64,000 nt of DNA from an uncultured Candidatus Saccharibacteria bacterium (GTDB lineage: Bacteria; Patescibacteriota; Minisyncoccia; Phycocordibacterales; DSPV01), in the NCBI GenBank assembly GCA_964349135.1, contig CAYGFK010000004.1, positions 728 through 64,727 of the forward strand. Reading direction: 5' to 3'. This document shows, in pieces, positions 3,503-55,990 of this stretch (position 1 is the stretch's first letter; each line of letters starts with the position of its first letter). The notes below the pieces were generated by a model, which searched no databases, had not been told where the DNA came from, and saw nothing but the letters and a program-made list of their open reading frames with translations. Position numbers and translations under genes: made by a program.

Positions 3503-3829
3503 ATGAAAATTGTTGTGGTTATTGTCGTTGCGGGAGGTATTATGTGGTACTTCGGATTTCACGGTCCGAATCCTATCTTTACCGACTACTCCGGTCAGGG
3601 CGGTTCCTTTATGGGGCGCCAAATTTGTACCAATCTTGTCCCTCAAAATCCGTACAATCCTCGTCTTGCACAATACAATGGATTTGAATGGGCAAGCCAA
3701 AACAAAAATAGTCGATGCCCGAGTGAGTCATCGTTCATCAAACAAGGGTGTGAAGAATACCATCGACAAGAAGCTATCTATGCAGAATGCACGAAAGACG
3801 ACCCGTATAAAGGTCTTAAGGGTCAGTAA
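3503..3829 (+). CDS. small membrane-anchored Cys-containing hypothetical protein
   Basis: N-terminal TM (KIVVVIVVAGGIMWYFGF), 4 Cys in the exported part, -10-like TATTATATAAG just upstream. Divergent from the 2853..3416 gene. Confidence 0.5.
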   Translation: MKIVVVIVVAGGIMWYFGFHGPNPIFTDYSGQGGSFMGRQICTNLVPQNPYNPRLAQYNGFEWASQNKNSRCPSESSFIKQGCEEYHRQEAIYAECTKDDPYKGLKGQ

Positions 3830-3831
3830 GA

Positions 3832-4509
3832 CTACTCTTTGAAATTCTCTTCTTCGACAACTCCTTTCGAGAGCTTGAGTGTTCGATGTGTCAGTGCGGC
3901 GTACTCCGGTTCGTGGGTGACCATGACAATAGTTTGACCGTCTTTGTTCAGCGAGAGAAAAGTATCAAGAACCGTTTGAGCGGTGGCACTGTCGAGGTTC
4001 GCGGTTGGCTCGTCGGCAAAAATAATCTTAGGGTCGTGGCCAATAGCGCGAGCGATGGAGACACGTTGCTGTTCTCCTCCTGATAACTGGCTCGGGAGAT
4101 TGTTGAATTTGTCGGCAAGTCCTATTCTCTCGAGCGCTTTTTTCGCTTTTTGTGTCGCCTCTTTCTTTTCAAGACCCAGCATGAGGAGAGGAATAATCAC
4201 GTTTTCGCCGGCGGTGAGTTCGGGGACAAGCGCATAATCTTGGAAGATGTAGCCGAGTTCGTTGAGTCGGAATGCGGTGCGCTCGGAAGGGTTTAATTTT
4301 GCAACGTCGACATTGTCGATGACAATTTCTCCACTGTCAGGGACGTCAAGCAGGCCGAGTTGGTAGAGGAGCGTACTTTTTCCTGAACCGGAACGTCCGG
4401 TGATGGAAAGAAACTCTCCTTTTTTCACCTCCATATCTAAGTCTTTTAGGACGACAAGCATTTCGTCTCCGGTTTTAAATGATTTTACGAGATTTCGTAC
4501 GTGTATCAT
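3832..4509 (-). CDS. ABC transporter ATP-binding protein (MacB/LolD-like)
   Basis: Walker [13 protein letters not shown] signature [14 protein letters not shown], Walker B IIFADEPT. Confidence 0.92.
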
Positions 4510-4510
4510 G

Positions 4511-5863
4511 TTATCGTCCGAGAATAGCGTCTAAGGTGTTTTGTTTTGTCACGATGCGGGCGGGGATGTATCCTGCGGCGATGGTTGCAACCACGAGTAT
4601 AGCGACTCGGATGAGCGCACCTTCAACACTGACTGCAAGGATGCCGTCAGAGAACGGGAAGTTAATGGGGTGAGCAAGGAAATATGGTTCAAGCACGCCG
4701 AATACAATCAGCAGGCCAATTCCTGAGCCCGCAATCGCGTAGAGTAGCGATTGAATAATGTAGGCGACTTCGATTGAGGTGGAGCTAATCCCAATACCTT
4801 TAAGAATGCCGATGAATTTTCTCCGGGTGATGGCATTGATGAAGATGACAATGAATATGGTGATTGAGGCAACCACGACACCAATTGAACTGATAATGTT
4901 GCCGAGTGTCGCGAATGTCTTTTTCATATCTTTGATGAATTTAGGTTCGGCGTCGTCTCTTGTCTGGACGCGGGCGTAACGGTCTGCACCTGATGCAATG
5001 AGAGCATTCTTGATGGCAATAGGGTCAACACCTTTTTCAAGTACCACCATAATTTCATTCGCGTTGTAGTCGTAACGATTGATGAGGGAGCGGAACTGCG
5101 TATCGGTGAAGAAAACGCGGCGGTCGAGTTCGTCGACCTTACTTCGCACGATACCTTTGATACGTACGTCTCTTGTGCTCCCGCCAACTGAGATGCGCAC
5201 CTTGTCTCCAACTTGCACATCTTCAAGTGTTAGAAAGATGGGAGATTCGAAATCAAGAAATTCTTTAAGCAAGAGCGCGCCGATAAGAACTTGGTCGTAG
5301 TCATCCGGCTCAAGATATTCTCCTCGAATAAGGAGACTGGAAAGGCCGCTTGCGAGGTCCTCTTTAATAGGATTGATGCCGACAAATGATGTGCCGACAG
5401 CGCGTGACAGTTCTCCCGGTTTTCGTATTTCCTGGTAGTTTTCCTCGATGGTTCCTGATTCAAGGTAGCGGGGGTTCACGTATTTCACTCCCGGTAAGTT
5501 TTGTGCGGTACTTATGATGGTGGAGGTTTTTTCGATATACGGTCTCCCTTGTTTGGCGGAAATGAAGATATCACCGAGGTATCGAGTACCAACAGCCTGC
5601 ACGGCTCCCTCAAGTAGCCCGACAAGGACTCCGGAGACGACCACCATGTTGAGGAAGGTCAGGGTCATGATAAAGACAATGAGAAAGTTGGTCCAGATAT
5701 TGCTTCGTTTAACCTGCCGATAGGCAAGGAAAAAACCGACCGACAATGCGGTCGAGAGAGTCTGCTTTTTGGTGTAATCCTTTACGCGTTCAGGATTCAT
5801 GTATAGGCAATTGTATCGGTTTGTTCGAGAACTATCAATTATACGATATTTACCTTGTGTCAA
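4511..5863 (-). CDS. ABC transporter permease, FtsX/MacB-like (real start probably the ATG at 5800; the track start codon is TTG)
   Basis: N-terminal TM, large periplasmic domain and 3 C-terminal TM helices typical of FtsX-like permeases. Start overlaps the ATPase gene stop by 2 nt, consistent with an operon. Confidence 0.85.
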   Translation of the reverse strand: MTQGKYRIIDSSRTNRYNCLYMNPERVKDYTKKQTLSTALSVGFFLAYRQVKRSNIWTNFLIVFIMTLTFLNMVVVSGVLVGLLEGAVQAVGTRYLGDIFISAKQGRPYIEKTSTIISTAQNLPGVKYVNPRYLESGTIEENYQEIRKPGELSRAVGTSFVGINPIKEDLASGLSSLLIRGEYLEPDDYDQVLIGALLLKEFLDFESPIFLTLEDVQVGDKVRISVGGSTRDVRIKGIVRSKVDELDRRVFFTDTQFRSLINRYDYNANEIMVVLEKGVDPIAIKNALIASGADRYARVQTRDDAEPKFIKDMKKTFATLGNIISSIGVVVASITIFIVIFINAITRRKFIGILKGIGISSTSIEVAYIIQSLLYAIAGSGIGLLIVFGVLEPYFLAHPINFPFSDGILAVSVEGALIRVAILVVATIAAGYIPARIVTKQNTLDAILGR

Positions 5864-9047: not shown

Positions 9048-10274
9048 TTACCCGAAGGTGAAGGTAAATGCTTCGAATTCAGGGGACTCAATGATAAGTT
9101 CTAGTGTGTGTTCTCCCCATGACATTCCTTCCACAATTCGATACAGACGGTCTTCTTGGATGGTAAGATAGCCATCGCTACCAACATCAGCTCCGCGCAT
9201 TGATGAGGGTATAACGGTCCCATCGATGAGTACGCGAGCCCGGACCGGAGTGTTTGCTCGGGCAACCATAAAGACCTTCTGTGCTTGGTATTTGAGCAAC
9301 ACGCGAGCCGGTGTATTTGCTGGGGTTGCGTATTCGGTTTGGATATTCCAGGAACCACCGAGGTAGAGTATCGAGGAGTCGAACTCGGAGGGGAGTGTGA
9401 GCGTTTGTGTTCCGTTGATATATCTCGCACCGTTTCCAAGTAGCGAATTCCTAAATGACCCGAAATAAATTTCAGGAGTTCGCGGTTTTGACGGGTCCAC
9501 CGTCTCAGCCTCTACCTTTGTTGAAGAAACGGGCGTCATTGTTTCCCCTAAACGTTCATTTCTCTCTTTGAGGAGGTTTTGAATAAGAGATTCGGTTTCG
9601 GCGTACGCACCTTCTCCTATGTGGTCGTAGACGATAAATCCATCTATGTCTATAAGATATTTCCTCGGCCAATATGAATTTTTATAGGCGCGCCACGTAG
9701 AAAAGTCGTTATCTTGTATGATAGGATATTCAACGCCGAATCGTTGTGCGGCCATGATGACATTTGTTCGGTCTTTCTCGAATTCGAATTCAGGGGTATG
9801 GATAGAAATGATTTCAAGTCCGCTATCCCGATATTTCGTATACCAATCTGTCAGGTAGGGAAGGGTGCGCTGGCAGTTGATGCATGAATAGGTCCAAAAA
9901 TCGACGAGGACAACTTTTTTGCCAATGAGCGATGAGATGGTTACCGGCACTTCTCCTGTATTAATAAATCCTGAGGGATTTACTATCTCAACAAAGCGTT
10001 CATACCGTGTTGCTTTTGCTTTGTAGGCAGAAGTTTCTGAGTTTGATGGTACATCTGTTATTTTTGTATCAGTGCCTGTCGATAGTACCGTTTCTGGAAT
10101 TGAAGAGGAGGTGGTTGTGCAACTTCCGTCCGGTCCAGGATTTTGACACTGCACGATTTCTTGTAATGAAGCCGAGACGCTCGGGCGTGATTTTTGCGAC
10201 TCGAGATAGGTAATAGAGCCGATAATGACGATGACGACAGCTATCAGCGTTAGGTTGCGTGCGTTTAAGGTCAT
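9048..10274 (-). CDS. membrane-anchored thioredoxin-fold protein with C-terminal beta-sandwich domain (DipZ C-terminal-like thiol:disulfide oxidoreductase)
   Basis: TM anchor. TlpA/ResA-like motif VVLVDFWTYSCINCQRTLP (CxxC). About 150-aa C-terminal extra domain. Start overlaps the ccdA stop. Confidence 0.8.
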   Translation of the reverse strand: MTLNARNLTLIAVVIVIIGSITYLESQKSRPSVSASLQEIVQCQNPGPDGSCTTTSSSIPETVLSTGTDTKITDVPSNSETSAYKAKATRYERFVEIVNPSGFINTGEVPVTISSLIGKKVVLVDFWTYSCINCQRTLPYLTDWYTKYRDSGLEIISIHTPEFEFEKDRTNVIMAAQRFGVEYPIIQDNDFSTWRAYKNSYWPRKYLIDIDGFIVYDHIGEGAYAETESLIQNLLKERNERLGETMTPVSSTKVEAETVDPSKPRTPEIYFGSFRNSLLGNGARYINGTQTLTLPSEFDSSILYLGGSWNIQTEYATPANTPARVLLKYQAQKVFMVARANTPVRARVLIDGTVIPSSMRGADVGSDGYLTIQEDRLYRIVEGMSWGEHTLELIIESPEFEAFTFTFG

Positions 10275-10981
10275 GAGCGTAGGAGGAATGCGTTAAGAAG
10301 TTCAAAGTTGGCGATGCGGGCAAGGTTGTTTGTGAATATAAGGATGCCGATTACGATGAGGAGGACGCCAAATACAATATTGATGTATTTCACGACATGA
10401 ACGAATCGGTTAAGAAATTTCGAACTCTCGGCGGCGAACAGCCCAACGATGAGGAAGGGAATACCAAGGCCAAGTGCATACGAGAGGAGGAGGATAAAGG
10501 CGCTTCCCGGAGCGCTAGCCGCAAGGCCGAGTATCGCGCCGAGTGCGGCACCAACGCAGGGTGTCCATCCAGCCGCAAAGGCGAGTCCGAAGACAAATGA
10601 AGTGAGGTAGCGAGAAGAGAATTTCTTCGTAACACGGAGTTTGTGTTCGCGCTCGAGGAATCCAATATGCACAAGGCCTGTCACGTAGAGCCCGAAGAAG
10701 ATAATAATGGCTCCACCGATGCGAGAGAGCCATATCTGTGCATCGTACGCAAAGGATTCTAGCACGGTGTTGAGGAGGACACCGAGGAGGGCGAAGATGA
10801 ATGAGAAGCCGAGAACGAAGAAAAGCGCGTTAAGAAATGTTTCGCGGCGATTCACCTCTCCTTCTTTGAGCGATGAACCCGCAAGGTACGCGAGAAATCC
10901 AGGAATAATCGGGAGGACGCAAGGGGCGATGAATGATATGAGTCCTGCCGTAAAGGCGACGATGATATTGAGGTCTGCCAT
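10271..10981 (-). CDS. ccdA: cytochrome c-type biogenesis protein CcdA (DsbD-like membrane thiol-disulfide electron transporter)
   Basis: ISFIAPCVLPIIPGFLAYLAG plus a second conserved Cys (AAGWTPCVGAALG). 6 TM helices. Confidence 0.9.
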   Translation of the reverse strand: MADLNIIVAFTAGLISFIAPCVLPIIPGFLAYLAGSSLKEGEVNRRETFLNALFFVLGFSFIFALLGVLLNTVLESFAYDAQIWLSRIGGAIIIFFGLYVTGLVHIGFLEREHKLRVTKKFSSRYLTSFVFGLAFAAGWTPCVGAALGAILGLAASAPGSAFILLLSYALGLGIPFLIVGLFAAESSKFLNRFVHVVKYINIVFGVLLIVIGILIFTNNLARIANFELLNAFLLRS

Positions 10982-10982
10982 G

Positions 10983-11636
10983 TTACCGGTGCGATGCTAT
11001 CTCTGATAGATAACGCGATGCATCCCATGATTCCGGAGATTTGAGGACGCGCGTATTATTTTTGATGAATACTTTTGTATGTTGATAGGCAACACCGAAC
11101 TGTTGGGCCAGAACTTTTTCATTTTGGTCGGTTTCGGTGTCATTGAAGTTGACTCGAAATGCAACCACGTCATTTCCTTCAAGTTCGTTGAAGGCACTCT
11201 GCATCTTTGGGAATTCCGTTTTGCAGACGGGGCACCAATTTGCGTAGAAGTAGAGCACCACAAGCTTATCGGTCGCGATGGCCGTGTCGTAATCGGATTT
11301 CGTGAACTCAAGTAGCGGGGAGGTATCCAGCGAGCCGGCAAGGAGGGTTCCGGAGTAGCTCTCTTTCTGCATCATGGATTCATCATTGGTCAGCGTGTCG
11401 TCGGATTCCATCATAACGTCGTTCGTTGGCTCAGTAGGACAGGGAGCAAATTCACATTTTGGTCCGATACGGCCAACGGCACTTCCATCAGGACAGATTT
11501 TTGCGTCTGCTGTACACGCGACAGGACCCGTGTCGATATCCGAAGAATCTCTTGTTGCGTAATAGATTCCTCCGCTTGCGATGAGGAGTATGACGATGAC
11601 GCTTGTAAGTGCGACGGATGATATACCTTTTTGCAT
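10983..11636 (-). CDS. membrane-anchored thioredoxin-like protein (TlpA-family)
   Basis: LVVLYFYANWCPVCKTEFP CxxC motif. N-terminal TM and Cys-rich linker. Confidence 0.8.
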   Translation of the reverse strand: MQKGISSVALTSVIVILLIASGGIYYATRDSSDIDTGPVACTADAKICPDGSAVGRIGPKCEFAPCPTEPTNDVMMESDDTLTNDESMMQKESYSGTLLAGSLDTSPLLEFTKSDYDTAIATDKLVVLYFYANWCPVCKTEFPKMQSAFNELEGNDVVAFRVNFNDTETDQNEKVLAQQFGVAYQHTKVFIKNNTRVLKSPESWDASRYLSEIASHR

Positions 11637-11652
11637 AAACTTTTTTTAATTA

Positions 11653-12015
11653 CTAATTGTTCTTTTTATTCCAGAAGGATGCCACGGCTTTTGTGAGGAC
11701 GCTTACCGCGAAAGCAATAACAAGCCACGGGTCGACGTTGTGGGAAAAGCTTTGAATGCCGATTGCCAATACAAGAACACCCGAAACGGCCAGATACGCG
11801 TTATGACCGGCGCGCATTCGGTGTAGTTCGTCACGTTCATCGAGTGCTCTTTCGCGCCAGACGAAGAAAGCGAATACGGCAAAACATATAAAGAATAGTG
11901 CGATGATAGTCATGGTTATAGCGTCCGGCATTAAGATTTTCATCGGATTAAGGAGTACGCATGCAAGCATAAGGGTGGCTAATGAGACGATGAGTTCCGA
12001 CATAAATGAGCGCAT
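11653..12015 (-). CDS. small multi-TM membrane protein (DUF2975-like partner of the XRE regulator)
   Basis: 3-4 TM helices. Start is 4 nt downstream of the XRE gene stop. This arrangement is typical of YozG-type regulator/membrane protein pairs. Confidence 0.55.
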   Translation of the reverse strand: MRSFMSELIVSLATLMLACVLLNPMKILMPDAITMTIIALFFICFAVFAFFVWRERALDERDELHRMRAGHNAYLAVSGVLVLAIGIQSFSHNVDPWLVIAFAVSVLTKAVASFWNKKNN

Positions 12016-12019
12016 GTGA

Positions 12020-12223
12020 TTATTTTACTGAAAATAATTTCTCTACCGAGACGTTAAAATATCTCGCGATTTTAAGTGCGAGCGCGACCGAGGGTGTGTA
12101 GTTTCCACGCTCCAGAGCGATGACTGTCTGACGTGTGACACCTGTGGCGTGAGCAAGCTCTTCCTGCGTCACCTCTTTTTTCACGCGATAGTCACTGACC
12201 ATGTTTGAGACCATGTCTCTCAT
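12020..12223 (-). CDS. XRE-family helix-turn-helix transcriptional regulator (YozG-like)
   Basis: [39 protein letters not shown] is a canonical Cro/C1 HTH. Confidence 0.88.
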
Positions 12224-12252
12224 GCCTGAAGTATAGCAAGCTAATTTTTGTA

Positions 12253-12270
12253 TGTAAAGTACGCTTTACA
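12253..12270. promoter_or_regulatory. 7-4-7 inverted repeat TGTAAAG-TACG-CTTTACA, candidate XRE operator between divergent XRE gene and msrA
   Basis: Perfect 7-bp arms. Located in the 78-bp divergent intergenic region, next to the TGTTATACT -10-like box of msrA. Confidence 0.5.
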
Positions 12271-12301
12271 TCGGACGTAACCATTTGTTATACTTTATCC
12301 T

Positions 12302-12832
12302 ATGAAAGAAATAGCGGTATTCGGGGGAGGGTGTTTTTGGTGTACTGAAGCGGTGTTCGAGCGTCTCAAGGGCGTGCTCTCGGTTATGCCTGGTTATGCC
12401 GGGGGATTAAAAGACAGCCCGTCGTATGAAGAGGTAAGTCGAGGAAGTACCGGTCATGCCGAAGTTATAAAAATCGAGTATGACCCGAGCGTTATCTCGT
12501 TTGGCGACTTACTTTCGGTTTTCTTCAACACCCATGACCCGACACAGCTCAATCAGCAGGGGAATGATGTGGGGGAGCAGTATCGTTCGGCTATTTTCTA
12601 TACGACTGACACACAGAAGCAGGAAGCAGAATTCCTTATCAAAGAGTTTGGCGAGAAAAAAGCGTACGACAAACCGGTTGTAACGAAGGTGGAACCTCTT
12701 GGAAAATTCTACCCTGCAGAGAACTATCATCGTGAGTATTATAATCGCAATTCAGATGCGCCGTACTGTGAGCTTGTTATCGCGCCGAAACTCGACAAAT
12801 TACAAAGGAAATTCAAACAATTGCTTTCATGA
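12302..12832 (+). CDS. msrA: peptide-methionine (S)-S-oxide reductase MsrA
   Basis: FGGGCFWCTEAVF catalytic motif, GYAGG, full-length MsrA fold. Confidence 0.95.
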   Translation: MKEIAVFGGGCFWCTEAVFERLKGVLSVMPGYAGGLKDSPSYEEVSRGSTGHAEVIKIEYDPSVISFGDLLSVFFNTHDPTQLNQQGNDVGEQYRSAIFYTTDTQKQEAEFLIKEFGEKKAYDKPVVTKVEPLGKFYPAENYHREYYNRNSDAPYCELVIAPKLDKLQRKFKQLLS

Positions 12833-20105: not shown

Positions 20106-20657
20106 TTAGCCGAGGGCTGAGGTAATGACCTCTTTCGGCACTGAGGCAGTCTTCTTAAGTGCCGCTTTAATAGCGTTTCCCGTCTTTCCACCGATTTCTG
20201 TTGCAGCTTCAAGTGCTCCAGAAACAGCTTCTTTGGCGGCCATGGTAGTGTCAGCGCCAAGTGAGCCAGCTTTCGCGACAGCACTTCCAAGAATGCTTTC
20301 GACTGCGGAAGCGGTGTCACCACCTACTTCAGCGACACCGGCGATTGCTCCGCGTACGGCACCTTTTGTTGCCATAACGACGTCGCCACCGACATTTTGT
20401 GCCCCTTCAATAACACTTTCAGCGACAGCTGCTGCGCCGTCAACAACAGAGGTTGTTGTTCCAGTAAGTGCCGTAACAGCACCTTTTGCAACTGATGCAA
20501 CCGAGCCGACTGTCTCCTCAGTGAGAGAGCCAGCGCTTTTGATTGTGTCGCCGACCGTTTTTGTTACCGTATCGCGGAGTGCTCCGATGACATCCTCTGC
20601 TCCGGAAATTGCGGCAATCACCGCACTTTTCGCTTCATTGATGATGTTTTCCAGCAT
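20106..20657 (-). CDS. Ala/Gly/Val/Thr-rich protein built from about 22-residue tandem repeats (LEA/apolipoprotein-like amphipathic repeat protein)
   Basis: Repeats such as ATKGAVRGAIAGVAEVGGDTAS / AVESILGSAVAKAGSLGADTTM / AAKEAVSGALEAATEIGGKTGN. A terminator follows on the minus strand. The opposite strand is also open, so strand choice rests on the terminator and the repeat regularity. Confidence 0.55.
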   Translation of the reverse strand: MLENIINEAKSAVIAAISGAEDVIGALRDTVTKTVGDTIKSAGSLTEETVGSVASVAKGAVTALTGTTTSVVDGAAAVAESVIEGAQNVGGDVVMATKGAVRGAIAGVAEVGGDTASAVESILGSAVAKAGSLGADTTMAAKEAVSGALEAATEIGGKTGNAIKAALKKTASVPKEVITSALG

Positions 20658-20799
20658 TGTTCTTAATTATTATTTACTAAAGACTTTTTCAGTATAGCAG
20701 AGTGGTTCTGAAGTCAAAGAGGGTGGTGTGGAGTGTTGCTGGACGCATGTAGCAGTACTACCATCCCCTCAATTTGTGAGTATTTGGTATACTTTAGGT

Positions 20800-22023
20800 A
20801 TGAAATCATCTGAGATAGCCGAAACACTTAAATTTATAGATAAAAAGATTGCTTATCCTGACATTTACTCTATAGAAGGAGCGTCAACCAACCCTGAGGT
20901 TACTGTGAACGGGAAGAAGGTACTCATGTTCTGCTCTAATAATTATTTAAGCATTGCAACCGATTCTCGCATTAAGGAGGTGATGAGGGGGGCTGTCGAA
21001 AAATATGGGATGGGTTCAGGTGGGTCAAGGCTTGTATCAGGGAATATCGATATACAAGCTGAACTTGAGGCAAAAATAGCTCAGTTTAAAGGGGTAGAAG
21101 ATGCTATTACATTTTCGACGGGTTATATGGCGAATACCGGAGTTATTCCAGTTCTACTGAAACCTCCGACTACTTCTTTTTTCGGGTATATTAAGGATAA
21201 GACTTTTCTTAGAGACGCTAGTCTTGTCCTAAGTGATGAATTAAATCATGCGAGCATTGTAGACGGTGTACGTTTATCGAAAGCAGAAAAAATAGTTTTT
21301 AGGCATAAAGATACGGCCGGACTAGAGGAGGCGCTGAAAACATCTCGTGGATACAAAAGGAAGCTCATCGTTACTGACGGAGTATTTAGTATGGATGGAG
21401 ATATTGCACCCTTGTCCGACATCATGAACCTTGCTAAAAAACATGATGCCGTGGTTATGGTTGACGACGCTCACGCTACGGGCATTCTTGGAGAACACGG
21501 GAAAGGCACCGCAGAGCATTTCCATTTAACAGAAAATCCCGATATTTCTATGGGGACGTTCACGAAAGTTTTTGGAGGGGTAGGAGGATTCGTCGCCGGT
21601 TCCAGAGATTTGATTAAATACCTCCGAGTTACCGCACGAACATATATTTTTTCAGCGCCAATACCTCCCGTTATCGCGACAGGTCTTATAAAGGCGATTG
21701 ATATAGTTGCGTCAGAGCCAGAGCGCCGGAGGAAGCTGTGGGAGAATATAACGTATGCTCACGCAGGTCTCCGAAGTAAGAATTTAAATATTTTAGAAAG
21801 TGAGACTCAAATAACCCCTATTCTCATTGGGGACGAGAAAAAAGCGATTAATGTTTCAAGGCGCCTTCTTGAATTAGGATGTTTCCTTCCTTGTGTTCGT
21901 TGGCCTGCCGTTGCGAGGGGTGCTAGCAGATTGCGGATGACTCTTATGACTGACCACACGAAAGAACAAATAGACGCGCTTATAGGCGCTCTTGAAATCG
22001 TGAAGAAGGAGTTCAAGTTTTAA
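20800..22023 (+). CDS. PLP-dependent alpha-oxoamine synthase family enzyme (KBL/BioF/SPT/CqsA-like class II aminotransferase)
   Basis: N-terminal ...KVLMFCSNNYLSIATD...GMGSGGSRLVSGN and the PLP-lysine region DISMGTFTKVFGGVGGFVAGS (SPT-like GTFTKxFG). Start at MKSSEIAE follows a TATACT box. An unusual about 20-aa insertion lies before DELNHASIVDG. Lower GC than the flanks. Confidence 0.85.
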   Translation: MKSSEIAETLKFIDKKIAYPDIYSIEGASTNPEVTVNGKKVLMFCSNNYLSIATDSRIKEVMRGAVEKYGMGSGGSRLVSGNIDIQAELEAKIAQFKGVEDAITFSTGYMANTGVIPVLLKPPTTSFFGYIKDKTFLRDASLVLSDELNHASIVDGVRLSKAEKIVFRHKDTAGLEEALKTSRGYKRKLIVTDGVFSMDGDIAPLSDIMNLAKKHDAVVMVDDAHATGILGEHGKGTAEHFHLTENPDISMGTFTKVFGGVGGFVAGSRDLIKYLRVTARTYIFSAPIPPVIATGLIKAIDIVASEPERRRKLWENITYAHAGLRSKNLNILESETQITPILIGDEKKAINVSRRLLELGCFLPCVRWPAVARGASRLRMTLMTDHTKEQIDALIGALEIVKKEFKF

Positions 22024-22026
22024 TCC

Positions 22027-23022
22027 ATGTCTCTTTTAAATCGATTTAAGGAGATAAGGAGTCGAAGCGGACTTACCTTTTTTGATACTCATATTCATAC
22101 CCACGAAGTCTTAGGTGTTATGGGGAAGGCAGGTTCTTTCTCGAGAAACTATTCCGCAAGTCTTTTAGAGAGGTTGAATTTTAACAATTTCTCTCTCACC
22201 ATCCTCGGTCTTCTCTTTCGAATTACACCGTTTTATATTCGTTCTGAGATACGAAAGAAATTTCCCAGTTCCGAGGATTCACTAGTGCGCGCTTTAACTG
22301 ATGCATCGATAGACAAAGCTACCCTTGTCCCGATTAATCCAAATGTCTCCCCGCGCTCTCTCTATGAGGATTTCTCTTCAGAAGATTTTGTACGACTTGG
22401 TTCTCCTGATTTCTCGCTCTCTCTTGAGTCTCTCAATCAAGATTTAGAAATCCAATTAACGCAATACTCTATTGTCGGGATTAAGTTGCATCCAAACATA
22501 CAATCCTTTTTTCCTCACCCTGGAAAGAACGCAGATGTTTTAAGAGAGAAATTAGATTTAATTTACCGATTTGCCGAGAAGCATAAACTGTATCTGCTGA
22601 TTCATGGAGGTATTTCTTATGTTCCAGCGGGAGGGGGATTTGAGTTGCGAGAATACGGAACAATCAGCAACTTCTTCGATGGAGGTATCTTTTTTCTAGG
22701 TAAGCTTTCCGTTCCTGTTGTGATAGCTCATTTGGGAATTTATAATGAGAGTAATCCTCGCTGGGACCTAATAGAGAAGATTATGACGTATCCCAATATC
22801 TATTTTGATACAGCGGGAGTCAATCCGAAATATATTGAGAGGTTCCTCAAGAAGGGGGGAGTTTCCAAACTCTTGTTCGGTTCTGACGCAATGTATTTTA
22901 ATATTCGACACAGTGTTGAGTCGGTACTCAATGTTTTATATAGATATTCCAAGGTCGATTTTGAAAAGAATGTAATTTCTGTGTTTAGCAAGACCTATAC
23001 AGATTATATCTGTAAGAAATAA
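22027..23022 (+). CDS. amidohydrolase-2 family TIM-barrel metal-dependent hydrolase
   Basis: FFDTHIHTH metal-binding HxH near the N-terminus and LLFGSDAMYF near the C-terminus. Start is 3 nt after the upstream stop. Low GC. Confidence 0.75.
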   Translation: MSLLNRFKEIRSRSGLTFFDTHIHTHEVLGVMGKAGSFSRNYSASLLERLNFNNFSLTILGLLFRITPFYIRSEIRKKFPSSEDSLVRALTDASIDKATLVPINPNVSPRSLYEDFSSEDFVRLGSPDFSLSLESLNQDLEIQLTQYSIVGIKLHPNIQSFFPHPGKNADVLREKLDLIYRFAEKHKLYLLIHGGISYVPAGGGFELREYGTISNFFDGGIFFLGKLSVPVVIAHLGIYNESNPRWDLIEKIMTYPNIYFDTAGVNPKYIERFLKKGGVSKLLFGSDAMYFNIRHSVESVLNVLYRYSKVDFEKNVISVFSKTYTDYICKK

Positions 23023-24590
23023 TGCAGTACGTAATATTATTCTTCAGTATTGTAAATTTACTATTAGGAATCATCATCTGGATTCATAGTAAGCATGAAC
23101 GAGAGACAGTAACCTTTCTTTCGTTCGCTTTTCTCTCGAGTCTTTGGACATTCAACAACTTCTATCTCCGAATTCACCCCGATATTATTTCACTGAGGGC
23201 GTCCTACGCTTTAGGGTTTGTTGTTGCAACGTTCGGGTTGATATGGACATACTTCTTTTTAAAGAAAAATCTCCCTATTTTTGTAAAATATTTCATGCTT
23301 CCTTTAACGGGAGCTTTCTTTGTGGTTGCGCTTTTTTCAGATCGAATTGTTCGTGAGCTGTACTCTGTAGAACCTTTTGGATATGAGGGAGTTCTTGGTG
23401 ATTGGTTTATTGCGTACTCGCTTTATTTCGGCTTAGTCATTTTGCTCATCCTCTACAACTTTTTCCATCAACTTGTTATTGAAGATGATTCCGCAAGACG
23501 AAGTCAGATACAGTATGTGTTAGGAGGCGCAACGGTATTCGCTATAACCTCCTCGATAGTTAGTTTTGTCATCCCGACATTTTTTAACACACTACGTTAT
23601 ACAATTTTCGACAACTTCAGCTTTTCAATATTTTTAGCGAGCATTGTCTATGCCATTCTTCGATTCAGACTATTCAATATCCGTGTACTGGTAACAGAAA
23701 TCTTTGTTTTCTTACTGTGGACCCTTATCTTAATTCGAGCGACAACGTCCGGTGATTTGAGGGATGCGGTCTTAAATGTTGGACTGCTGGTGCTCTCGGT
23801 ACTTATAGGCATCTTTTTGATTAGGAGTGTGTTGCAGGAGGTGAAGCAACGCGAGCAGATTGAACGATTGGCTAAAGATTTGACGGATACGAATGAACGA
23901 CAGGAGAAACTTATTCATTTCATTGGACATGAGGTGAAGGGGTATTTGACGAAAGGTGAGTATGCGTTCGCTGAGTTGATTGACGGTGATTACGGTGAAA
24001 TAAATCCGGACGCGAAGATTCTTGCCACGAATGCTCTTGCTGAGGTGCGGAAGGGGGTTTCGGCGGTGACAGATATTCTCAAGGCGGCAAACCTTAAACG
24101 TGGCACGGTTTCGTATAATAAAGAGAAAACTGACCTTAAAGCGCTCTTAAAGGAAGAAATTATCAAGCTTAGACCGTCAGCAGAAGAACGAGGTCTTGCA
24201 CTTGAGACAAGTTTTAATGAAGAGCAGAAATATATGGTGCGTATAGACCGCACGCAATTCGCTGAGCACGTCATACGCAACCTCATCGACAATTCAATCA
24301 AATACACTTCGAAGGGGAAGGTTATGGTGCGACTTGCGCAGGCGGGTAGTAAGGTTCTATTGGTTATAAAAGACACAGGGGTTGGTATCACTGATGAAGA
24401 TAAGGAACATCTCTTTACTGAGGGAGGTCATGGGAAAGATTCAATTAAAATAAATGTGCACTCAACCGGGTATGGGCTCTATATCGCTAAAGAAATTGTC
24501 GAGGCTCATGACGGCTCCATTAAAGGGGAGTCTGAGGGGAAGGGAATGGGCTCAACGTTTACCGTCGAATTACCTGCAGTTACCTCATAA
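23022..24590 (+). CDS. sensor histidine kinase with N-terminal 8-9 TM sensor domain (orphan; no receiver domain or response regulator nearby)
   Basis: H-box HFIGHEVKGYL and HATPase_c motifs (IDNSIKYT, DTGVGITDED, GYGLYIAKEIVEAHDGSI). Start overlaps the amidohydrolase stop (taATG). Confidence 0.9.
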   Translation: MQYVILFFSIVNLLLGIIIWIHSKHERETVTFLSFAFLSSLWTFNNFYLRIHPDIISLRASYALGFVVATFGLIWTYFFLKKNLPIFVKYFMLPLTGAFFVVALFSDRIVRELYSVEPFGYEGVLGDWFIAYSLYFGLVILLILYNFFHQLVIEDDSARRSQIQYVLGGATVFAITSSIVSFVIPTFFNTLRYTIFDNFSFSIFLASIVYAILRFRLFNIRVLVTEIFVFLLWTLILIRATTSGDLRDAVLNVGLLVLSVLIGIFLIRSVLQEVKQREQIERLAKDLTDTNERQEKLIHFIGHEVKGYLTKGEYAFAELIDGDYGEINPDAKILATNALAEVRKGVSAVTDILKAANLKRGTVSYNKEKTDLKALLKEEIIKLRPSAEERGLALETSFNEEQKYMVRIDRTQFAEHVIRNLIDNSIKYTSKGKVMVRLAQAGSKVLLVIKDTGVGITDEDKEHLFTEGGHGKDSIKINVHSTGYGLYIAKEIVEAHDGSIKGESEGKGMGSTFTVELPAVTS

Positions 24591-24605
24591 TTTCATGGTA
24601 TAGTA

Positions 24606-26030: not shown

Positions 26031-26057
26031 CCCGCCGAGCCCTATTGCTCGGCGGGG
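26031..26057. terminator. hairpin cccgccgagc/gctcggcggg after aspS (A-run upstream, no clear T-run downstream)
   Basis: 10-bp GC-rich stem. Orientation ambiguous. Confidence 0.4.
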
Positions 26058-37500: not shown

Positions 37501-37540
37501 TTGAAAGTTGTAGGGTAACAGTTTAAAGTGAGTAGCTATT

Positions 37541-37625
37541 GGAGGCGTCGCATAGTGGCCTAGTGCGCTCGCTTGGAAAGCGAGTATGGGGAAACCCATC
37601 GAGAGTTCGAATCTCTCCGCCTCCG
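37541..37625 (+). tRNA. tRNA-Ser (anticodon GGA), no encoded CCA
   Basis: Manual fold: acceptor GGAGGCG/CGCCTCC, 3-bp D-stem, anticodon stem CTCGC/GCGAG with loop TTGGAAA, long variable arm, T-arm GAGAG-TTCGAAT-CTCTC. Confidence 0.9.
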
Positions 37626-37807
37626 AATTTGTAAAATAGATAGCTTCTGCTATCTCATTTTGCAAACAGTCGGAAGGAAGCGAAGCTTTCGGAGATTCGA
37701 AAGGCGCAGGTATATTTTCGCAGTAGCGAAAATACCGAGCCAGGGTCGTGAAAATTTTCGAGCGGTAGCGAGGAAATTATTCCTGACCGAATCTCTCCGC
37801 CTCCGAA
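37608..37807. repeat. 20-bp perfect direct repeat CGAATCTCTCCGCCTCCGAA: copy 1 = tRNA-Ser T-loop to 3' end (37608..37627), copy 2 at 37788..37807. An att-like duplication bracketing a 160-bp insert
   Basis: Exact 20/20 identity seen directly. The insert contains imperfect about 42-bp tandem units (TTTTCG..GTAGCGA). Confidence 0.8.
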
Positions 37808-38821: not shown

Positions 38822-39796
38822 ATGAGCAATATATTTAAAACGCCCAAGGCAGTTCTAGTTACAGGATGTGCGGGTTTTATAGGAAGTAACTTTGTAAGAC
38901 AATTCAGAAAAGAATTTCCAAAAACCAACATTATTGGGATAGATGATTTCCAAACCGGCAGAAAAGAAACATCTGAATCCGCTACTATTTTTTATAAAGG
39001 CTCGATTTTAGATGGGAATCTCTTGGAGAAGATTTTTTCTAAACACAAACCAGAATATGTCTTTCATTTTGCCGCATTGCCTCGCGTTTCCTATTCCATT
39101 GAACATCCACGGCATACCAGCGAGGTGAATATTATTGGAACGGTTGCCTTACTTGAGGCGTCAAAGAGGTATGGGGTGAAGAGATTTATCTTTTCGTCAT
39201 CTTCTTCTGTCTATGGTGGTGCAAAGAAATTGCCCACAAAAGAGTCTGAAAATGTACCAGACCCGAAATCTCCTTATGCCGTACAGAAATACGCTGGCGA
39301 GACCTTTTGTAAAGTTTTCAGCGATTTATTTGGATTAGATACCATTTGCTTACGCTACTTTAACGTCTTTGGACCGGGGCAATACGGCGATTCACCGTAC
39401 GCTACCGTTGTGTCAGCTTGGCTCGAGTCAGTCTATTTTCCAAAAAAGAAGTCAGCCTTTATTGAAGGCGACGGTAGTCAGTCACGAGATTTCTGTTACG
39501 TAGATAATGTAGTCTCGGCCAATATTCTAGCTATGAAATCAAGACGATATTTTAAGGGCGAGGTGTTGAATGTTGCTTATGGAGACCAGATAAAAATTAG
39601 TGACGCTAGGAAGCTGATAGAGCGATATACAGGAAAGAAGTTAGAGTTAGAAAAACGACCGCCAAGGTTGGGTGATGTAAAACACACCCGCGCAGACATT
39701 TCTAAAGCTCGGAAATTGATTGGCTATAAGCCACGCGTGGATTTTGAGGATGGATTGAAAAGAACGATAGAGTGGTTTAAGGAAAGGAAAAGCTAA
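38822..39796 (+). CDS. NAD-dependent epimerase/dehydratase (GalE/WbpP-like UDP-sugar 4-epimerase), low-GC
   Basis: Rossmann VLVTGCAGFIGSNFV. Catalytic YAVQKYAGE (YxxxK). SDR extended fold. About 38-40% GC versus about 50% flanks. Confidence 0.88.
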   Translation: MSNIFKTPKAVLVTGCAGFIGSNFVRQFRKEFPKTNIIGIDDFQTGRKETSESATIFYKGSILDGNLLEKIFSKHKPEYVFHFAALPRVSYSIEHPRHTSEVNIIGTVALLEASKRYGVKRFIFSSSSSVYGGAKKLPTKESENVPDPKSPYAVQKYAGETFCKVFSDLFGLDTICLRYFNVFGPGQYGDSPYATVVSAWLESVYFPKKKSAFIEGDGSQSRDFCYVDNVVSANILAMKSRRYFKGEVLNVAYGDQIKISDARKLIERYTGKKLELEKRPPRLGDVKHTRADISKARKLIGYKPRVDFEDGLKRTIEWFKERKS

Positions 39797-40980: not shown

Positions 40981-41421
40981 ATGGGAAAGACCATTACGGT
41001 ATTTTTAGTTATTTTAATTGTTCTTGTCGGCGGTTACTTCGTGTTTACGGGTGATAAAGAGGAACAAGCACCAGTCGAAAGCCTTGGCCAGGTCACAGAG
41101 GAAGGTGAGGCTTCGGGAGCGACTGATATGGTTGCCGAAGACAGTGTGAAGACGTTTGAAGTTGCCGGTACGAACTTTAAATATTCAGTCGAAGAAATTC
41201 GCGTCAAGAAAGGGGACACGGTTCGTATCGTGTTCACAAGCGAGAGCGGGTTCCATGATTGGGTGGTGGATGAATTCGATGCGCGCACGAAACAGCTTCA
41301 GGCTCCGGGCTCAGAAACCATTGAGTTTGTTGCCGATGAGGTGGGTGAGTTCGAATACTACTGTTCAGTCGGTCAGCACCGAGCGAATGGTATGGTGGGA
41401 ACGCTTATCGTAGAAGAATAG
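40981..41421 (+). CDS. membrane-anchored cupredoxin (plastocyanin/azurin-like type-1 copper protein)
   Basis: N-terminal TM. Type-1 Cu ligand pattern H (FHDW) ... C-x2-G-x-H-x4-M (YYCSVGQHRANGM). Confidence 0.8.
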   Translation: MGKTITVFLVILIVLVGGYFVFTGDKEEQAPVESLGQVTEEGEASGATDMVAEDSVKTFEVAGTNFKYSVEEIRVKKGDTVRIVFTSESGFHDWVVDEFDARTKQLQAPGSETIEFVADEVGEFEYYCSVGQHRANGMVGTLIVEE

Positions 41422-41492: not shown

Positions 41493-43022
41493 ATGTTCAA
41501 ACGTCTGAATAGTTATATTGATTCGGTCACGATGTACCGACTTATCTTTTACGCGCTGTCGATTCTTGCGATTTTTGCTCTGTTGTTTGGGTTCTTAGGA
41601 GTTATTCCGTTTAGTGGCTCAAGTCTTTCGCTTTCGCTCGCCACTCTCTTTTTCGTGTGTGTGGTGAGTAATCGTTTCTTAGGGCGTTTGACGAAGGCTT
41701 CGGTAAATCTCGAGTCTGACGCGATTACCGCACTCATACTTTTCTTTGTGCTCACTCCCGTTATCGGCACTCTCGCACTAGCTAAACTCACAGTGGTTGC
41801 CACTCTGGCCATAGCTTCTAAATATTTAATTGCGTGGCGAGGGAAGCATCTTTTTAATCCGGCGGCACTGGGCGCTGTGATTGCTGGAGTAATTGGGTTC
41901 GGGGCGAGTTCCTGGTGGGTATCGCTTAGTCCGCTTCTCTATATATCACTCGTGCTTGGGTTACTCATTGTAAAGAAGATAAGACGATTCCCAATGGTAA
42001 TTGCGTTCGCTGTTTCGGTACTTTCAATTAGTTTAGTAACCTCGGCATTTTCGGGAATGCCACCATCTCGATTTCTATTTCTTGTCCCGGCGCAGATTTT
42101 CACGGTGTGGCCTCTCATATTCCTCGGCATGTTTATGTTGACCGAGCCACTGACAACACCACCAACGAGTGGTAAAAGACTTGTGTACGGAATACTTGTT
42201 GGAGCCCTGTTCGGTTTCCCGACACACGTCGGAGGTGTTTACCTTACGCCTGAGTTGGCCCTAGTGATTGGCAACCTCTTTTCATTTTTCGTCAGCTTTA
42301 AAGGCCGAATCGAGCTTACCTTCATCGAGAAAAAGAAACTTGCTCCATCTATTTACGAGTTTGTGTTCAGGGCAAAACAGCATCTTCACTTCAAGGCCGG
42401 ACAATATCTTGAGTGGACGTTTCCGCACGAGCGTCCCGATGCGCGGGGTTACCGACGCTATTTTACGATTGCTTCTTCTCCGACCGAACAAGAGATTCGT
42501 GTCGGAATGAAAGTCACTGAATCAGGTTCAAGCAGTTTCAAGCACCACCTACTCGCGCTTACTCCCGGAACGCGCATGATTGCCGGACAGCTTGGTGGCG
42601 AGTTTGTGTTGCCGAAAAAATCCAGTGAGAAGCTTGTTTTTATTGCCGGAGGAATAGGAGTGACGCCATTCCGAAGTATGATTAAAGAAATGGTTGATAC
42701 GAAGCAGTCGAGAGACATCGTACTCTTCTATACCTGTCTCGACGCATCCGAGTTTGTTTACAAAGAAATTTTTGATGAAGCGGCGCCACTCGGCTTGAAA
42801 ACAGTTTATGTCTTAACTCGTTCCGATTCTGTGCCCGCAGGTTCTTCTTTCAAGACAGGGTTTATCGATAAAGCCCTGCTTTCATCGCAAGTTCTTGATT
42901 TTGAGCACTGCACTTATTATCTTTCCGGACCACCCTCAATGGTGCGCGCCTATAAAAAGCTTGTGCGGTCTCTCGGTGTTCCTCTGTCGCGCATCAAAAC
43001 CGATTATTTTGCCGGCTACTAA
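41493..43022 (+). CDS. membrane oxidoreductase: polytopic N-terminal domain fused to ferredoxin-NADP reductase-like FAD/NAD(P)-binding domain
   Basis: About 7 TM helices in the first 270 aa. C-terminal RRYFTIASSP (RxYS FAD motif) and GGIGVTPFRSM (NAD-binding). No 2Fe-2S Cys cluster seen. Confidence 0.75.
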   Translation: MFKRLNSYIDSVTMYRLIFYALSILAIFALLFGFLGVIPFSGSSLSLSLATLFFVCVVSNRFLGRLTKASVNLESDAITALILFFVLTPVIGTLALAKLTVVATLAIASKYLIAWRGKHLFNPAALGAVIAGVIGFGASSWWVSLSPLLYISLVLGLLIVKKIRRFPMVIAFAVSVLSISLVTSAFSGMPPSRFLFLVPAQIFTVWPLIFLGMFMLTEPLTTPPTSGKRLVYGILVGALFGFPTHVGGVYLTPELALVIGNLFSFFVSFKGRIELTFIEKKKLAPSIYEFVFRAKQHLHFKAGQYLEWTFPHERPDARGYRRYFTIASSPTEQEIRVGMKVTESGSSSFKHHLLALTPGTRMIAGQLGGEFVLPKKSSEKLVFIAGGIGVTPFRSMIKEMVDTKQSRDIVLFYTCLDASEFVYKEIFDEAAPLGLKTVYVLTRSDSVPAGSSFKTGFIDKALLSSQVLDFEHCTYYLSGPPSMVRAYKKLVRSLGVPLSRIKTDYFAGY

Positions 43023-45467: not shown

Positions 45468-45878
45468 ATGAAAGAAGGTGAGATACCAAAATCTGATGAG
45501 GGGTGGAAGAAAAGACTCGATGAAGAGACGTATCGTGTGACGAGAGAAAAAGGGACTGAGGCCCCGTTCACCGGAAAATATTTACATAATAAAAAGACGG
45601 GAATGTACGCGTGTTCAAATTGCGGGAGCACGTTATTCTCGTCGGATGCAAAATTCGATTCAGGCACCGGGTGGCCGTCGTTTACCGAACCGGCGAATCT
45701 TGAGCATGTGGAACTTGTCGAAGATAATTCGTATGGGATGCGACGCACAGAAGTTGTTTGCAAGCGTTGTGGAGCGCATCTCGGTCACATGTTCGAAGAC
45801 GGTCCTCGTGAGAGAGGTGGTAAACGTTTCTGTATCAATTCTTGTTCACTTGATTTTAAAGAAGGGGAACGGACATAA
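45468..45878 (+). CDS. msrB: peptide-methionine (R)-S-oxide reductase MsrB
   Basis: Two CxxC zinc motifs (CSNCGSTLF, CKRCGAHLGHMF) and GWPSF. Confidence 0.93.
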   Translation: MKEGEIPKSDEGWKKRLDEETYRVTREKGTEAPFTGKYLHNKKTGMYACSNCGSTLFSSDAKFDSGTGWPSFTEPANLEHVELVEDNSYGMRRTEVVCKRCGAHLGHMFEDGPRERGGKRFCINSCSLDFKEGERT

Positions 45879-48904: not shown

Positions 48905-48940
48905 AAAACTAAAAACTCCCCGAAGGGAGTTTTTAGTTTC
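48905..48940. terminator. bidirectional rho-independent terminator (aaaaactcccc-gaa-ggggagttttt) serving nrdJ (+) and rnpB (-)
   Basis: Perfect stem flanked by A-run and T-run. Confidence 0.8.
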
Positions 48941-49281: not shown

Positions 49282-49394
49282 ACTAAGTTTATTTTACCAC
49301 CTTTTTATAGAAAGGCAATATCATCGTTGTTCATTGAATGGTTGGTTTTGTTTCGCTATACTACGTGCACCTATCAATAGCTTTTGCTCGCAAA

Positions 49395-55919: not shown

Positions 55920-55990
55920 GCGGGTATGGTTTAGTGGTAGAATGCGACCTTCCCAAGGTTGAGACGGGGGTTCGATTCCCCCTACCCGCA
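55920..55990 (+). tRNA. tRNA-Gly (anticodon CCC), no encoded CCA
   Basis: Manual fold: acceptor GCGGGTA/TACCCGC, anticodon stem CGACC/GGTTG with loop TTCCCAA, T-arm GGGGG-TTCGATT-CCCCC. Confidence 0.85.

Follow-up and report, generated by a model that had tools for sequence, protein, structure and literature searches.

A conserved synthase–hydrolase–histidine kinase cassette in Patescibacteria as a candidate make-and-sense module

A 64,000-nucleotide (nt) stretch of the genome of an uncultured Candidatus Saccharibacteria bacterium (Patescibacteriota; assembly GCA_964349135.1, contig CAYGFK010000004.1, positions 728 to 64,727 of the forward strand), hereafter the window, carries three consecutive genes designated G1, G2 and G3. 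They encode an enzyme of the alpha-oxoamine synthase (AONS) family, an Amidohydro_2-type hydrolase and a polytopic membrane histidine kinase. Our comparative analyses support a functional link that unites G1, G2 and G3 in one module, with a synteny that is both strongly conserved and specific. Judging from the sequences, we consider the chances evenly balanced that this cassette makes and senses a membrane-partitioning aminoketone or lipid. Its layout is like those of the CqsA/CqsS and LqsA/LqsS systems, but it is apparently assembled from different AONS and kinase lineages.

The genes lie on the same strand and are tightly coupled, as stated in a preliminary description of the window. The TAA stop codon of G1 (22021–22023) is followed after a 3 nt gap by the ATG of G2 (22027), and the stop codon of G2 shares 1 nt with the start codon of G3 within the sequence TAATG (23020–23024), an overlap that couples the translation of the two genes. 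This order recurs in dozens of independent contigs. Among loci harboring members of the G1 clade at 50–72% identity (compared loci and proteins are denoted by L and P numbers, respectively), a HisKA_7TM kinase lies 0–2 genes downstream in all eight loci sampled independently, with differing flanks. A metagenome scan for the G2 family, in which the loci were annotated with local hidden Markov models (HMMs), provided 38 non-redundant loci. The kinase is directly downstream of the hydrolase in 28 of 36 loci and within 4 kb in 33 of 36, while the AONS gene is directly upstream of the hydrolase in 23 of 33 loci and present anywhere in the locus in 27 of 33. The Amidohydro_2 enzyme is the most constant partner of the kinase.

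The linkage is specific for particular branches of the three families. The closest homologs of the kinase, the hydrolase and the AONS share contigs. On the other hand, HisKA_7TM kinases of the G3 family at about 40% identity are adjacent to neither AONS nor hydrolase genes, and since these more distant kinases sit in unrelated contexts, it is a specific kinase subfamily that travels with the enzymes. As a background, we used generic BioF or 2-amino-3-ketobutyrate CoA ligase (KBL) outgroup loci from diverse genomes, at no more than 44% identity, obtained by a profile scan of contigs with the AONS clade alignment. Among the matches listed, only 1 of 80 such generic loci has a 7TM kinase neighbor, and this locus (L010) itself falls inside the kinase-linked clade. 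The cassette was found in Patescibacteria and in Omnitrophota-type genomes, and the labels of the G1 and G3 homologs include Taylorbacteria, Nomurabacteria, Wildermuthbacteria and Paceibacteria.

Several variant arrangements were observed among the relatives. The locus L010 (5115–14989) encodes an AONS with the insertion described below; next to it come a HisKA_7TM-DUF835 protein and, as an open reading frame (ORF) of its own, a kinase core, flanked by six ORFs with matches to receiver domains. Stand-alone HisKA_7TM proteins lacking a kinase core are encoded directly upstream of the AONS in L103/L104 (968–1990 / 3736–4758) and in L107 (1815–3219), and in L007 the same position is occupied by a 237-aa membrane protein that weakly resembles 7TMR-DISM. 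The contig of L173/L174, labeled 'Candidatus Pacearchaeota archaeon', encodes a sigma-70 factor and an outer-membrane-protein beta-barrel beside its AONS–kinase pair, and its assignment to the archaea probably stems from an error in binning or annotation.

The G1 protein matches PF00155 (1.1e-54) and possesses the features of the AONS family of fold-type I pyridoxal phosphate (PLP) enzymes, in agreement with the assignment previously made from its GTFTKVFGG motif. In addition to the domain, the PLP-binding Lys, the His, the Asp/His and the Arg residues are all present, within the motifs NHAS (residues 149–152), DDAHA (222–226), GTFTK (T253 and the PLP-Lys K256) and SRLRMT (R379). K256, H150, D222/D223/H225 and R379 are invariant or conserved in at least 90% of a 39-sequence clade alignment, and they align with the corresponding residues of the Thermus alpha-oxoamine synthase (ThAOS, hereafter Thermus AOS), serine palmitoyltransferase (SPT) and KBL. 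In the ranking of solved structures, Thermus AOS (7poa/8s1y, 318 bits) is followed by the Sphingobacterium multivorum SPT (3a2b/8guh, 282 bits) and KBLs (232–261 bits); BioFs (about 195–217 bits) and CqsA (2wk8/3hqt, 94.7 bits) rank lower.

The G1 protein is distinguished from these enzymes by an insertion. Seventeen residues (122–138), located between the GYMANTG helix and the SDELNHAS strand, are missing from the Thermus AOS, the Sphingobacterium SPT and the Coxiella KBL in our alignment. The atypical insertion of about 20 residues reported earlier is therefore real. The segment comprises 16–27 residues in all 42 members of the kinase-linked clade and 7–8 residues in all 81 other AONS sequences; the extra length of 9–20 residues is thus present in 42/42 sequences within the clade and 0/81 outside it. 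We constructed a neighbor-joining tree of 123 AONS sequences, including Thermus AOS, SPT, KBL and 79 other outgroup sequences. The kinase-linked AONSs and L010 form one clade (bootstrap 84/100), outside Thermus AOS, SPT, KBL and the other outgroups. The insertion is a clean synapomorphy of this clade, and G1 is nested neither within KBL nor within clear BioF sequences. The outcomes that the preliminary description had named as refuting it, namely such nesting, a triad not conserved elsewhere and a GC content no different from the average, were thus not observed.

The second gene encodes a member of the Amidohydro_2 family (PF04909, 43.6 bits against a cutoff of 26.4), and its AlphaFold model displays a confident barrel with a predicted local distance difference test score (pLDDT) of 92.6, consistent with the TIM-barrel hydrolase anticipated from the sequence. 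In a 13-sequence alignment, D20/H22/H24, K153/H155/N157/Q159, H193, H235, D261 and D287 are invariant; this set includes the entire metal-site pattern (H22/H24, H193, H235 and D287). The residue pattern is that of an active metal-dependent barrel enzyme, and G2 is predicted to be catalytically intact. Foldseek matches of the model include the LigI-like lactonase 4i6k, CAC3332, IDCase, LigW, gamma-resorcylate decarboxylase and LigJ, at only 11–15% identity and template modeling (TM)-scores of 0.5–0.6. We therefore rejected assignment of a reaction by structure, as neighbors at this identity span lactonases, decarboxylases, hydratases and C–C hydrolases. No NCBIfam family matched G2. The subfamily is small, with about 55 clusters at 50% identity scoring above approximately 190 bits in an exhaustive profile search of 1.84 billion representatives.

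The third gene encodes a histidine kinase with an intramembrane sensor region. The AlphaFold model of residues 1–293 (pLDDT 91.3, predicted TM-score 0.83) contains nine helices, spanning residues 2–22, 27–51, 55–79, 86–105, 129–153, 157–188, 195–214, 220–241 and 246–292, and one extracytoplasmic beta-hairpin (110–125) in the loop that connects helices 4 and 5. As modeled, the sensor is a HisKA_7TM-type core with two further helices. The HisKA_7TM domain (PF16927) is found in most of the 120 G3 homologs listed, including one with 66% identity, while G3 itself is below Pfam significance for PF16927. A local HMM of the membrane domain of the G3 family matches ORFs that are themselves PF16927-positive (L104 and L010), and transitive homology thus suggests that G3 belongs to the HisKA_7TM family. 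The membrane domain matched nothing relevant in NCBIfam, and a phmmer search against the PDB returned no match. Foldseek matches to GPCR-like structures in the PDB (E 0.03–0.2, TM-scores 0.3–0.5) were rejected as reflecting a generic seven-helix topology and not homology.

The kinase core of G3 matches PF02518 (HATPase_c) at 8.5e-23 and displays the complete histidine kinase motif set, namely the H-box IGHEVKG with His303, the N-box NLIDNSIKY (420), the G1 box DTGVGI (451), the F box LFTEGG (464) and the G2 box GYGLYI (483). Many NCBIfam histidine kinase models match G3, over residues ~254–520 only. A domain scan identified no receiver domain (Response_reg) in G3, and the earlier count of 8–9 transmembrane helices without a receiver agrees well with the model. 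The only plausible sensor of G3 is its helical bundle. In the 64-kb window, tblastn, local HMM and Pfam scans of about 45 ORFs detected no response regulator, as previously noted, so that G3 lacks the adjacent cognate regulator of a classical two-component system.

The neighborhoods of the cassette in other genomes provide insights into the nature of the product. An acyltransferase of PF01553 with an intact HX4D motif, resembling the acyltransferase domain of the Aas/PlsC lysophospholipid acyltransferases, is encoded upstream of the AONS in L005, L006, L007/8, L100, L119/120, L122 and L123. In L009 (1383–3305; protein P0044, 640 aa), this acyltransferase is joined to the AONS as an N-terminal fusion, with a receiver-only regulator before and the hydrolase and kinase after the fusion gene. 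An extended cassette occurs in the Omnitrophota locus L172 (1–15224; contig Ga0104751_1000002), whose G1 homolog is 55% identical. In this locus, an SRPBCC/polyketide-cyclase-like gene, two unknown genes, the AONS, another unknown gene, an ICMT/PEMT methyltransferase and a HisKA_7TM-GAF kinase are followed by a receiver (REC), a GAF-HD phosphohydrolase, a monogalactosyldiacylglycerol (MGDG)-synthase-like glycosyltransferase and a lipid-A-type acyltransferase. The acyltransferase neighbors and fusion, together with the lipid genes of Omnitrophota, suggest a lipid-like, possibly further acylated product. Receiver-only response regulators adjoin the cassette in L007/8, L009, L172 and L010, and none of the loci showed a response regulator of the DNA-binding kind.

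These associations are reminiscent of sphingolipid synthesis. The acyltransferases, the short-chain dehydrogenase/reductase (SDR) of L115 and the glycosyltransferase of L172 echo the logic of long-chain base, ceramide and glycolipid formation that starts with SPT. However, G1 is below all of the SPT models (376 against a cutoff of 640 for NF047600, 299 against 500 for NF047599, and 245 against 670 for NF047603), and no gene for an acyl carrier protein (ACP), an acyl-ACP synthetase or a bacterial ceramide synthase (bCerS)-type enzyme was seen. We know of no kinase linkage in SPT operons.

Based on these findings, the favored mechanism can be outlined as follows. The chemistry of the family and the intact catalytic residues suggest that G1 would condense an amino acid with an acyl-thioester to generate a hydrophobic alpha-aminoketone, similar to a long-chain base. 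In relatives, the lysophospholipid-type acyltransferase may acylate this product further, as suggested by its neighborhood and by the fusion; the corresponding gene is absent from the window. G2 may tailor or turn over the G1 product by hydrolysis or decarboxylation. The helical bundle of G3 would then detect this product or its membrane level, after which the kinase would autophosphorylate on His303 and pass the signal to a receiver-only response regulator whose gene lies elsewhere. The output may be either population or host-contact signaling or the homeostasis of membrane lipids, between which the evidence does not discriminate, and the acyltransferase and Omnitrophota lipid-gene associations make membrane-lipid sensing as likely as classical quorum sensing. 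In support of this mechanism, none of the three proteins has lost its catalytic residues.

Several observations weigh against a make-and-sense module. Approximately one quarter of the hydrolase–kinase pairs lack an AONS (e.g., L105, L109, L115 and L121), and AONS–kinase pairs without the hydrolase also exist (L007/8 and L173), so that no single chemistry is obligatory. G1 passes the bioF model, albeit marginally (428.1 against 426.45), and the fold neighbors of G2 are lactonases, decarboxylases and hydratases at only 11–15% identity. The kinase may owe its place in the operon solely to regulation. Furthermore, tblastn, HMM and Pfam scans of the window revealed no PlsC-type acyltransferase, response regulator or visible source of acyl-thioester, and bacteria of the Candidate Phyla Radiation (CPR) are generally thought to lack fatty-acid synthesis.

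A bolder version of the proposal, which we put forward tentatively and regard as possible but doubtful, is that Patescibacteria and some Omnitrophota independently evolved a synthase–receptor circuit, in which the insertion-bearing AONSs, together with the Amidohydro_2 enzyme and often the lysophospholipid-type acyltransferase, would make a new class of aminoketone or sphingoid-like lipid from scavenged acyl chains, to be read in the membrane by a dedicated HisKA_7TM kinase. To our knowledge, Patescibacteria are thought to be unable to build their own lipids, and no autoinducer system has been demonstrated in them. If true, this version would provide the first ligand class for the widespread, uncharacterized HisKA_7TM sensor domain and offer a handle on how episymbionts sense the state of the membrane or of host contact. 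If the cassette makes and senses a lipid-like aminoketone of its own, as in the favored mechanism, it would be the first experimentally tractable signaling circuit specific to the CPR/Patescibacteria, which have a minimal metabolism and depend obligately on partners, and would assign a ligand class to the HisKA_7TM domain. It would also represent a convergent evolution of the Cqs/Lqs design from other enzyme and kinase lineages, and challenge the view of CPR bacteria as mere scavengers of membrane lipids. All three proteins are small and either soluble or reconstitutable, and the hypothesis is testable by heterologous expression without culturing.

Another possibility, which we consider unlikely although it survives best among the alternatives, would be that G3 is a sensor of membrane state, similar to DesK, and responds to a membrane property or an unrelated cue, while the neighboring AONS and hydrolase, and the acyltransferase of the relatives, would be lipid-remodeling enzymes that are controlled by it or simply co-expressed with it, and whose product is not the ligand. 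In the des-desK-desR locus of Bacillus, the multi-helix kinase DesK, which has no extracellular domain, is encoded beside a membrane-lipid-modifying enzyme and thus provides a precedent. The sensor of G3 likewise consists of membrane helices alone, and lipid-type neighbors (PlsC/Aas-like acyltransferase, PEMT/ICMT, MGDG-synthase-like and LpxL-like) are common. Moreover, the HisKA_7TM kinase family is large in the CPR, and most of its members reside in other contexts. However, DesK has five transmembrane helices and acts with the DNA-binding regulator DesR, while G3 has no sequence relation to DesK and the only regulators found in any locus are receiver-only proteins. Moreover, a single kinase subfamily, a single AONS clade and a single small hydrolase family are inherited together more tightly and specifically than is usual for co-regulation, and the genes are translationally coupled.

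Still less probable, in our judgment, is a scheme in which the hydrolase–kinase pair is the core and the AONS an optional accessory, with G2 degrading or processing a lactone, amide or carboxylate of external and possibly host origin, or serving the kinase as a cytoplasmic co-sensor. The adjacency of the kinase and the hydrolase (28/36 direct and 33/36 near) is indeed more constant than that of the AONS and the hydrolase (23/33), the 1-nt overlap couples G2 with G3, and the Amidohydro_2 relatives include lactonases. Pairs without an AONS exist, and one of them, L115 (5983–9594), encodes a protein of the NAD-dependent epimerase / 3-beta-HSD / fatty-acyl-reductase-like SDR type between the hydrolase and the kinase. 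In contrast, the AONS–kinase pairs lacking the hydrolase (L007/8 and L173/174) reach the most distant members of the clade, the synapomorphy of the AONS clade tracks the linkage to the kinase, and the invariant metal and catalytic residues of G2 favor an enzyme over a pure sensor.

The similarity to the Cqs and Lqs systems deserves separate consideration. CqsS is a hybrid kinase that carries a C-terminal receiver domain. In both systems, as in the cassette, an AONS-family PLP synthase is encoded beside a polytopic histidine kinase without a periplasmic domain, and the synthase–kinase parallel drawn in the preliminary description is confirmed in this respect. The Lqs response regulator has no classical DNA-binding output, which is comparable to the receiver-only regulators in the relatives of the cassette. 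CqsS recognizes a hydrophobic ligand within its membrane helices, the final one of which is the sixth (PMC3285556). A previous study identified 362 'CqsA homologs' in the CPR, 51 of which are adjacent to kinases matching a CqsS HMM, and interpreted these adjacencies, in silico only, as complete alpha-hydroxyketone (AHK) quorum-sensing systems (Bernard et al. 2020, mSystems; PMC7567580). These are almost certainly the same gene pairs as those of the AONS–kinase cassette, and the core idea of a synthase and kinase in the CPR is therefore already published in silico (PMC7567580). The searchable literature yielded no subsequent study that takes up this proposal.

Nevertheless, true Cqs/Lqs quorum sensing, with G1 as a CqsA/LqsA ortholog producing a CAI-1/LAI-1-like AHK and G3 as a CqsS/LqsS-type receptor, is very improbable. 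The homology criterion of the previous study (at least 25% identity and 75% coverage; PMC7567580) is at the superfamily level and captures any AONS enzyme, and the catalytic residues of G1 are those common to all AONSs. With 190.7 on the CqsA/LqsA model NF005526, G1 stays below the cutoff of 428, which places it outside the CqsA/LqsA clade; six to eight other AONS models outscore this model on G1, with those for 5-aminolevulinate synthase and beta-proteobacterial SPT at about 300. The structures give the same order, with 94.7 bits for CqsA compared to 318 bits for Thermus AOS. A descent of G1 from the Cqs/Lqs synthases is not supported by these scores, and the term 'CqsA homolog' overstates the relationship of the kinase-linked AONS clade to CqsA. 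The idea of a CqsS-like sensor fares no better, as G3 has nine HisKA_7TM-type helices and no receiver, while CqsS is a six-transmembrane kinase (PMC3285556), and the membrane domain of G3 matches no NCBIfam or PDB entry. Finally, the Cqs/Lqs systems have neither an Amidohydro_2 gene between synthase and kinase nor a linked or fused PlsC/Aas-like acyltransferase, both of which occur in the cassette family, and the acyltransferase fusion suggests a two-tailed lipid rather than a diffusible hydroxyketone.

The main text of the previous CPR study contains no mention of an amidohydrolase, an acyltransferase, a 7TM domain or the insertion that defines the clade, and reports no clade analysis or experiment (PMC7567580). 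The new elements described here are the AONS clade that is marked by the insertion and separate from CqsA, KBL and SPT, the role of the Amidohydro_2 hydrolase as the most constant partner of the kinase, the acyltransferase fusion and neighborhood, and the extension of the cassette beyond the CPR.

Ordinary metabolism, in which G1 would be a housekeeping BioF for biotin or a KBL for threonine and glycine, with the hydrolase and kinase unrelated to it, would be consistent with the nominal score of G1 on the NCBIfam bioF model TIGR00858, passed by 1.6 bits (428.1 against a cutoff of 426.45), with the name '8-amino-7-oxononanoate synthase' given to many G1 homologs by NCBI and JGI, and with the best solved relative. 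This relative, the promiscuous, dual-function BioF/KBL enzyme of Thermus thermophilus, is alignable to residues 28–403 of G1 with all catalytic residues conserved. However, the TIGR00858 cutoff is non-discriminating, because L014 and L056, which score better as KBL-type, pass it as well. G1 is below the cutoff of the BioF/Kbl subfamily model TIGR01825 (419 against 535) and below those of both KBL models (394 against 460 for NF005394 and 310.9 against 493 for TIGR01822), while bona fide KBLs score 560–635. Domain annotation of the window and of the related loci revealed no bioA, bioB, bioD or tdh, with the rest of the genome unseen. Unlike Thermus AOS and the TIGR01825 enzymes, G1 has the 17-residue insertion, falls into a separate clade, and is linked to a kinase and a hydrolase instead of biotin or threonine genes. 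The database name 'BioF' is probably wrong for the kinase-linked clade, and metabolism of the KBL, BioF or SPT type with a coincidental kinase, which the preliminary description had raised as the mundane alternative, is the least probable explanation of all, given the separate clade and a kinase adjacency kept across phyla as compared with 1/80 generic loci.

We also examined the base composition of the cassette, which had been described as lower in GC than its surroundings and, for this reason, as suggestive of horizontal acquisition. The GC contents of G1, G2 and G3 are 0.431 (z = -1.6), 0.391 (z = -3.0) and 0.419 (z = -2.0), respectively, compared to a mean of 0.476 (standard deviation (SD) 0.028) for 57 genes of the window, and the values at third codon positions are 0.385, 0.380 and 0.440, compared to a mean of 0.484 (SD 0.058) for the same genes. 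The depression is real but moderate, and the cassette (39–43%) is distinct from the gene mean (47.6%), in line with the earlier remark. Two other genes of the window are as GC-poor, encoding an SDR of the GDP-mannose-dehydratase/epimerase type (38822–39796, plus strand; 0.408) and a 698-aa Na+/H+ exchanger (43330–45426, plus strand; 0.416).

The low GC is a recurrent property of the cassette. In 14 of 15 homologous clusters, from genomes with 32–57% GC and including L003, L005–L007, L009, L091, L093, L098, L114, L118, L119, L122 and L126, the GC content of the cassette is below that of its own flanks. The hydrolase gene usually has the lowest value, as in L119 with 0.363 compared to 0.574 for the flanks. 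On the other hand, L003, with a 72%-identical G1, keeps the cassette in the same atp/aspS neighborhood. Since this relative shares the neighborhood, the cassette is not a recent arrival in the lineage, and recent horizontal acquisition was rejected. The low GC may be due to older or repeated transfer from low-GC donors, to a compositional bias of these proteins or to low expression.

The coordinates of the cassette and its immediate surroundings are collected in Table 1.

Table 1. Features of the cassette region, in positions of the window
Feature	Coordinates	Strand	Basis
Upstream intergenic region of G1; presumed promoter and 5' untranslated region	20658..20799	+	Position only
G1, AONS-family PLP enzyme, 407 aa	20800..22023	+	PF00155, catalytic motifs
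Clade-specific insertion in G1, residues 122–138, PPTTSFFGYIKDKTFLR	21163..21213	+	Alignment
G2, Amidohydro_2-type metal-dependent TIM-barrel hydrolase, 331 aa	22027..23022	+	PF04909
G3 sensor region, nine membrane helices and beta-hairpin	23022..23897	+	AlphaFold model
G3 kinase core	23898..24590	+	PF02518, motif boxes
aspS, 468 aa	24612..26018	+	tRNA_anti-codon and tRNA-synt_2 domains

The start codon of G1 is the ATG at 20800, which yields a 407-aa protein identical to the database protein P0001, and not the upstream GTG at 20728; mechanical ORF calling produced the longer version, with its GTG start, as an artefact. The intergenic region before G1 separates it from a divergent gene on the minus strand (20106–20657) encoding a 183-aa protein. 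A scan of this region found no sigma-70-like site, although such a scan may not apply to the CPR. A riboswitch or other structured leader was rejected, as Rfam provided no match at E ≤ 1 and the region folds no better than shuffled sequences do (z = -0.76). The 183-aa protein, whose gene lies between the cassette and the AtpI-like member of the atp operon, is Ala/Gly/Val/Thr-rich and repeat-like and has no Pfam match. An ORF antisense to its gene (20125–20697, plus strand) looks spurious, and in L003 an unrelated 840-aa gene occupies the corresponding position.

Downstream of the cassette, aspS begins 21 nt past the stop codon of G3. It is probably co-transcribed with the cassette, and because no terminator-like site was found by scanning between G3 and aspS, the transcript may extend through aspS to a hairpin at 26031–26056. 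This hairpin, just 3' of aspS, has a G+C-rich stem of 10 bp; its T-run is confined to the minus strand, and on the plus strand an A-run lies ahead of it. The kinase is likewise followed by aspS in L003 and L006 but in none of L005, L007 and L009, and aspS is outside the conserved cassette. The aspS of the window is of the short form (468 aa).

The remainder of the window is typical of a small Patescibacteria genome, with the atp operon, aspS, Sua5, RNase J, GroEL, MurJ, LepA, LeuRS and TsaD as the surrounding housekeeping genes. A gene on the plus strand (41493–43022) encodes a 509-aa protein with a weak NQR2/RnfD/RnfE-like membrane region and a C-terminal FNR-type NAD-binding domain, and is adjoined by a cupredoxin gene (40981–41421), a redox module unusual for a CPR genome. 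A thiol and oxidative-repair cluster (9048–12832) encodes a thioredoxin-like/AhpC-TSA protein, a DsbD-type membrane protein, a second thioredoxin-fold protein and MsrA; MsrB is encoded apart from it, elsewhere in the window, and the interval 45468–45878 is listed with the cluster. The RNase P RNA is of bacterial class A (48934–49283, minus strand; 118 bits). Four tRNA genes, for Ser-GGA, Gly-CCC, Arg-CCU and Phe-GAA, are located on the plus strand at 37540–37626, 55920–55990, 56967–57041 and 58203–58278, respectively.

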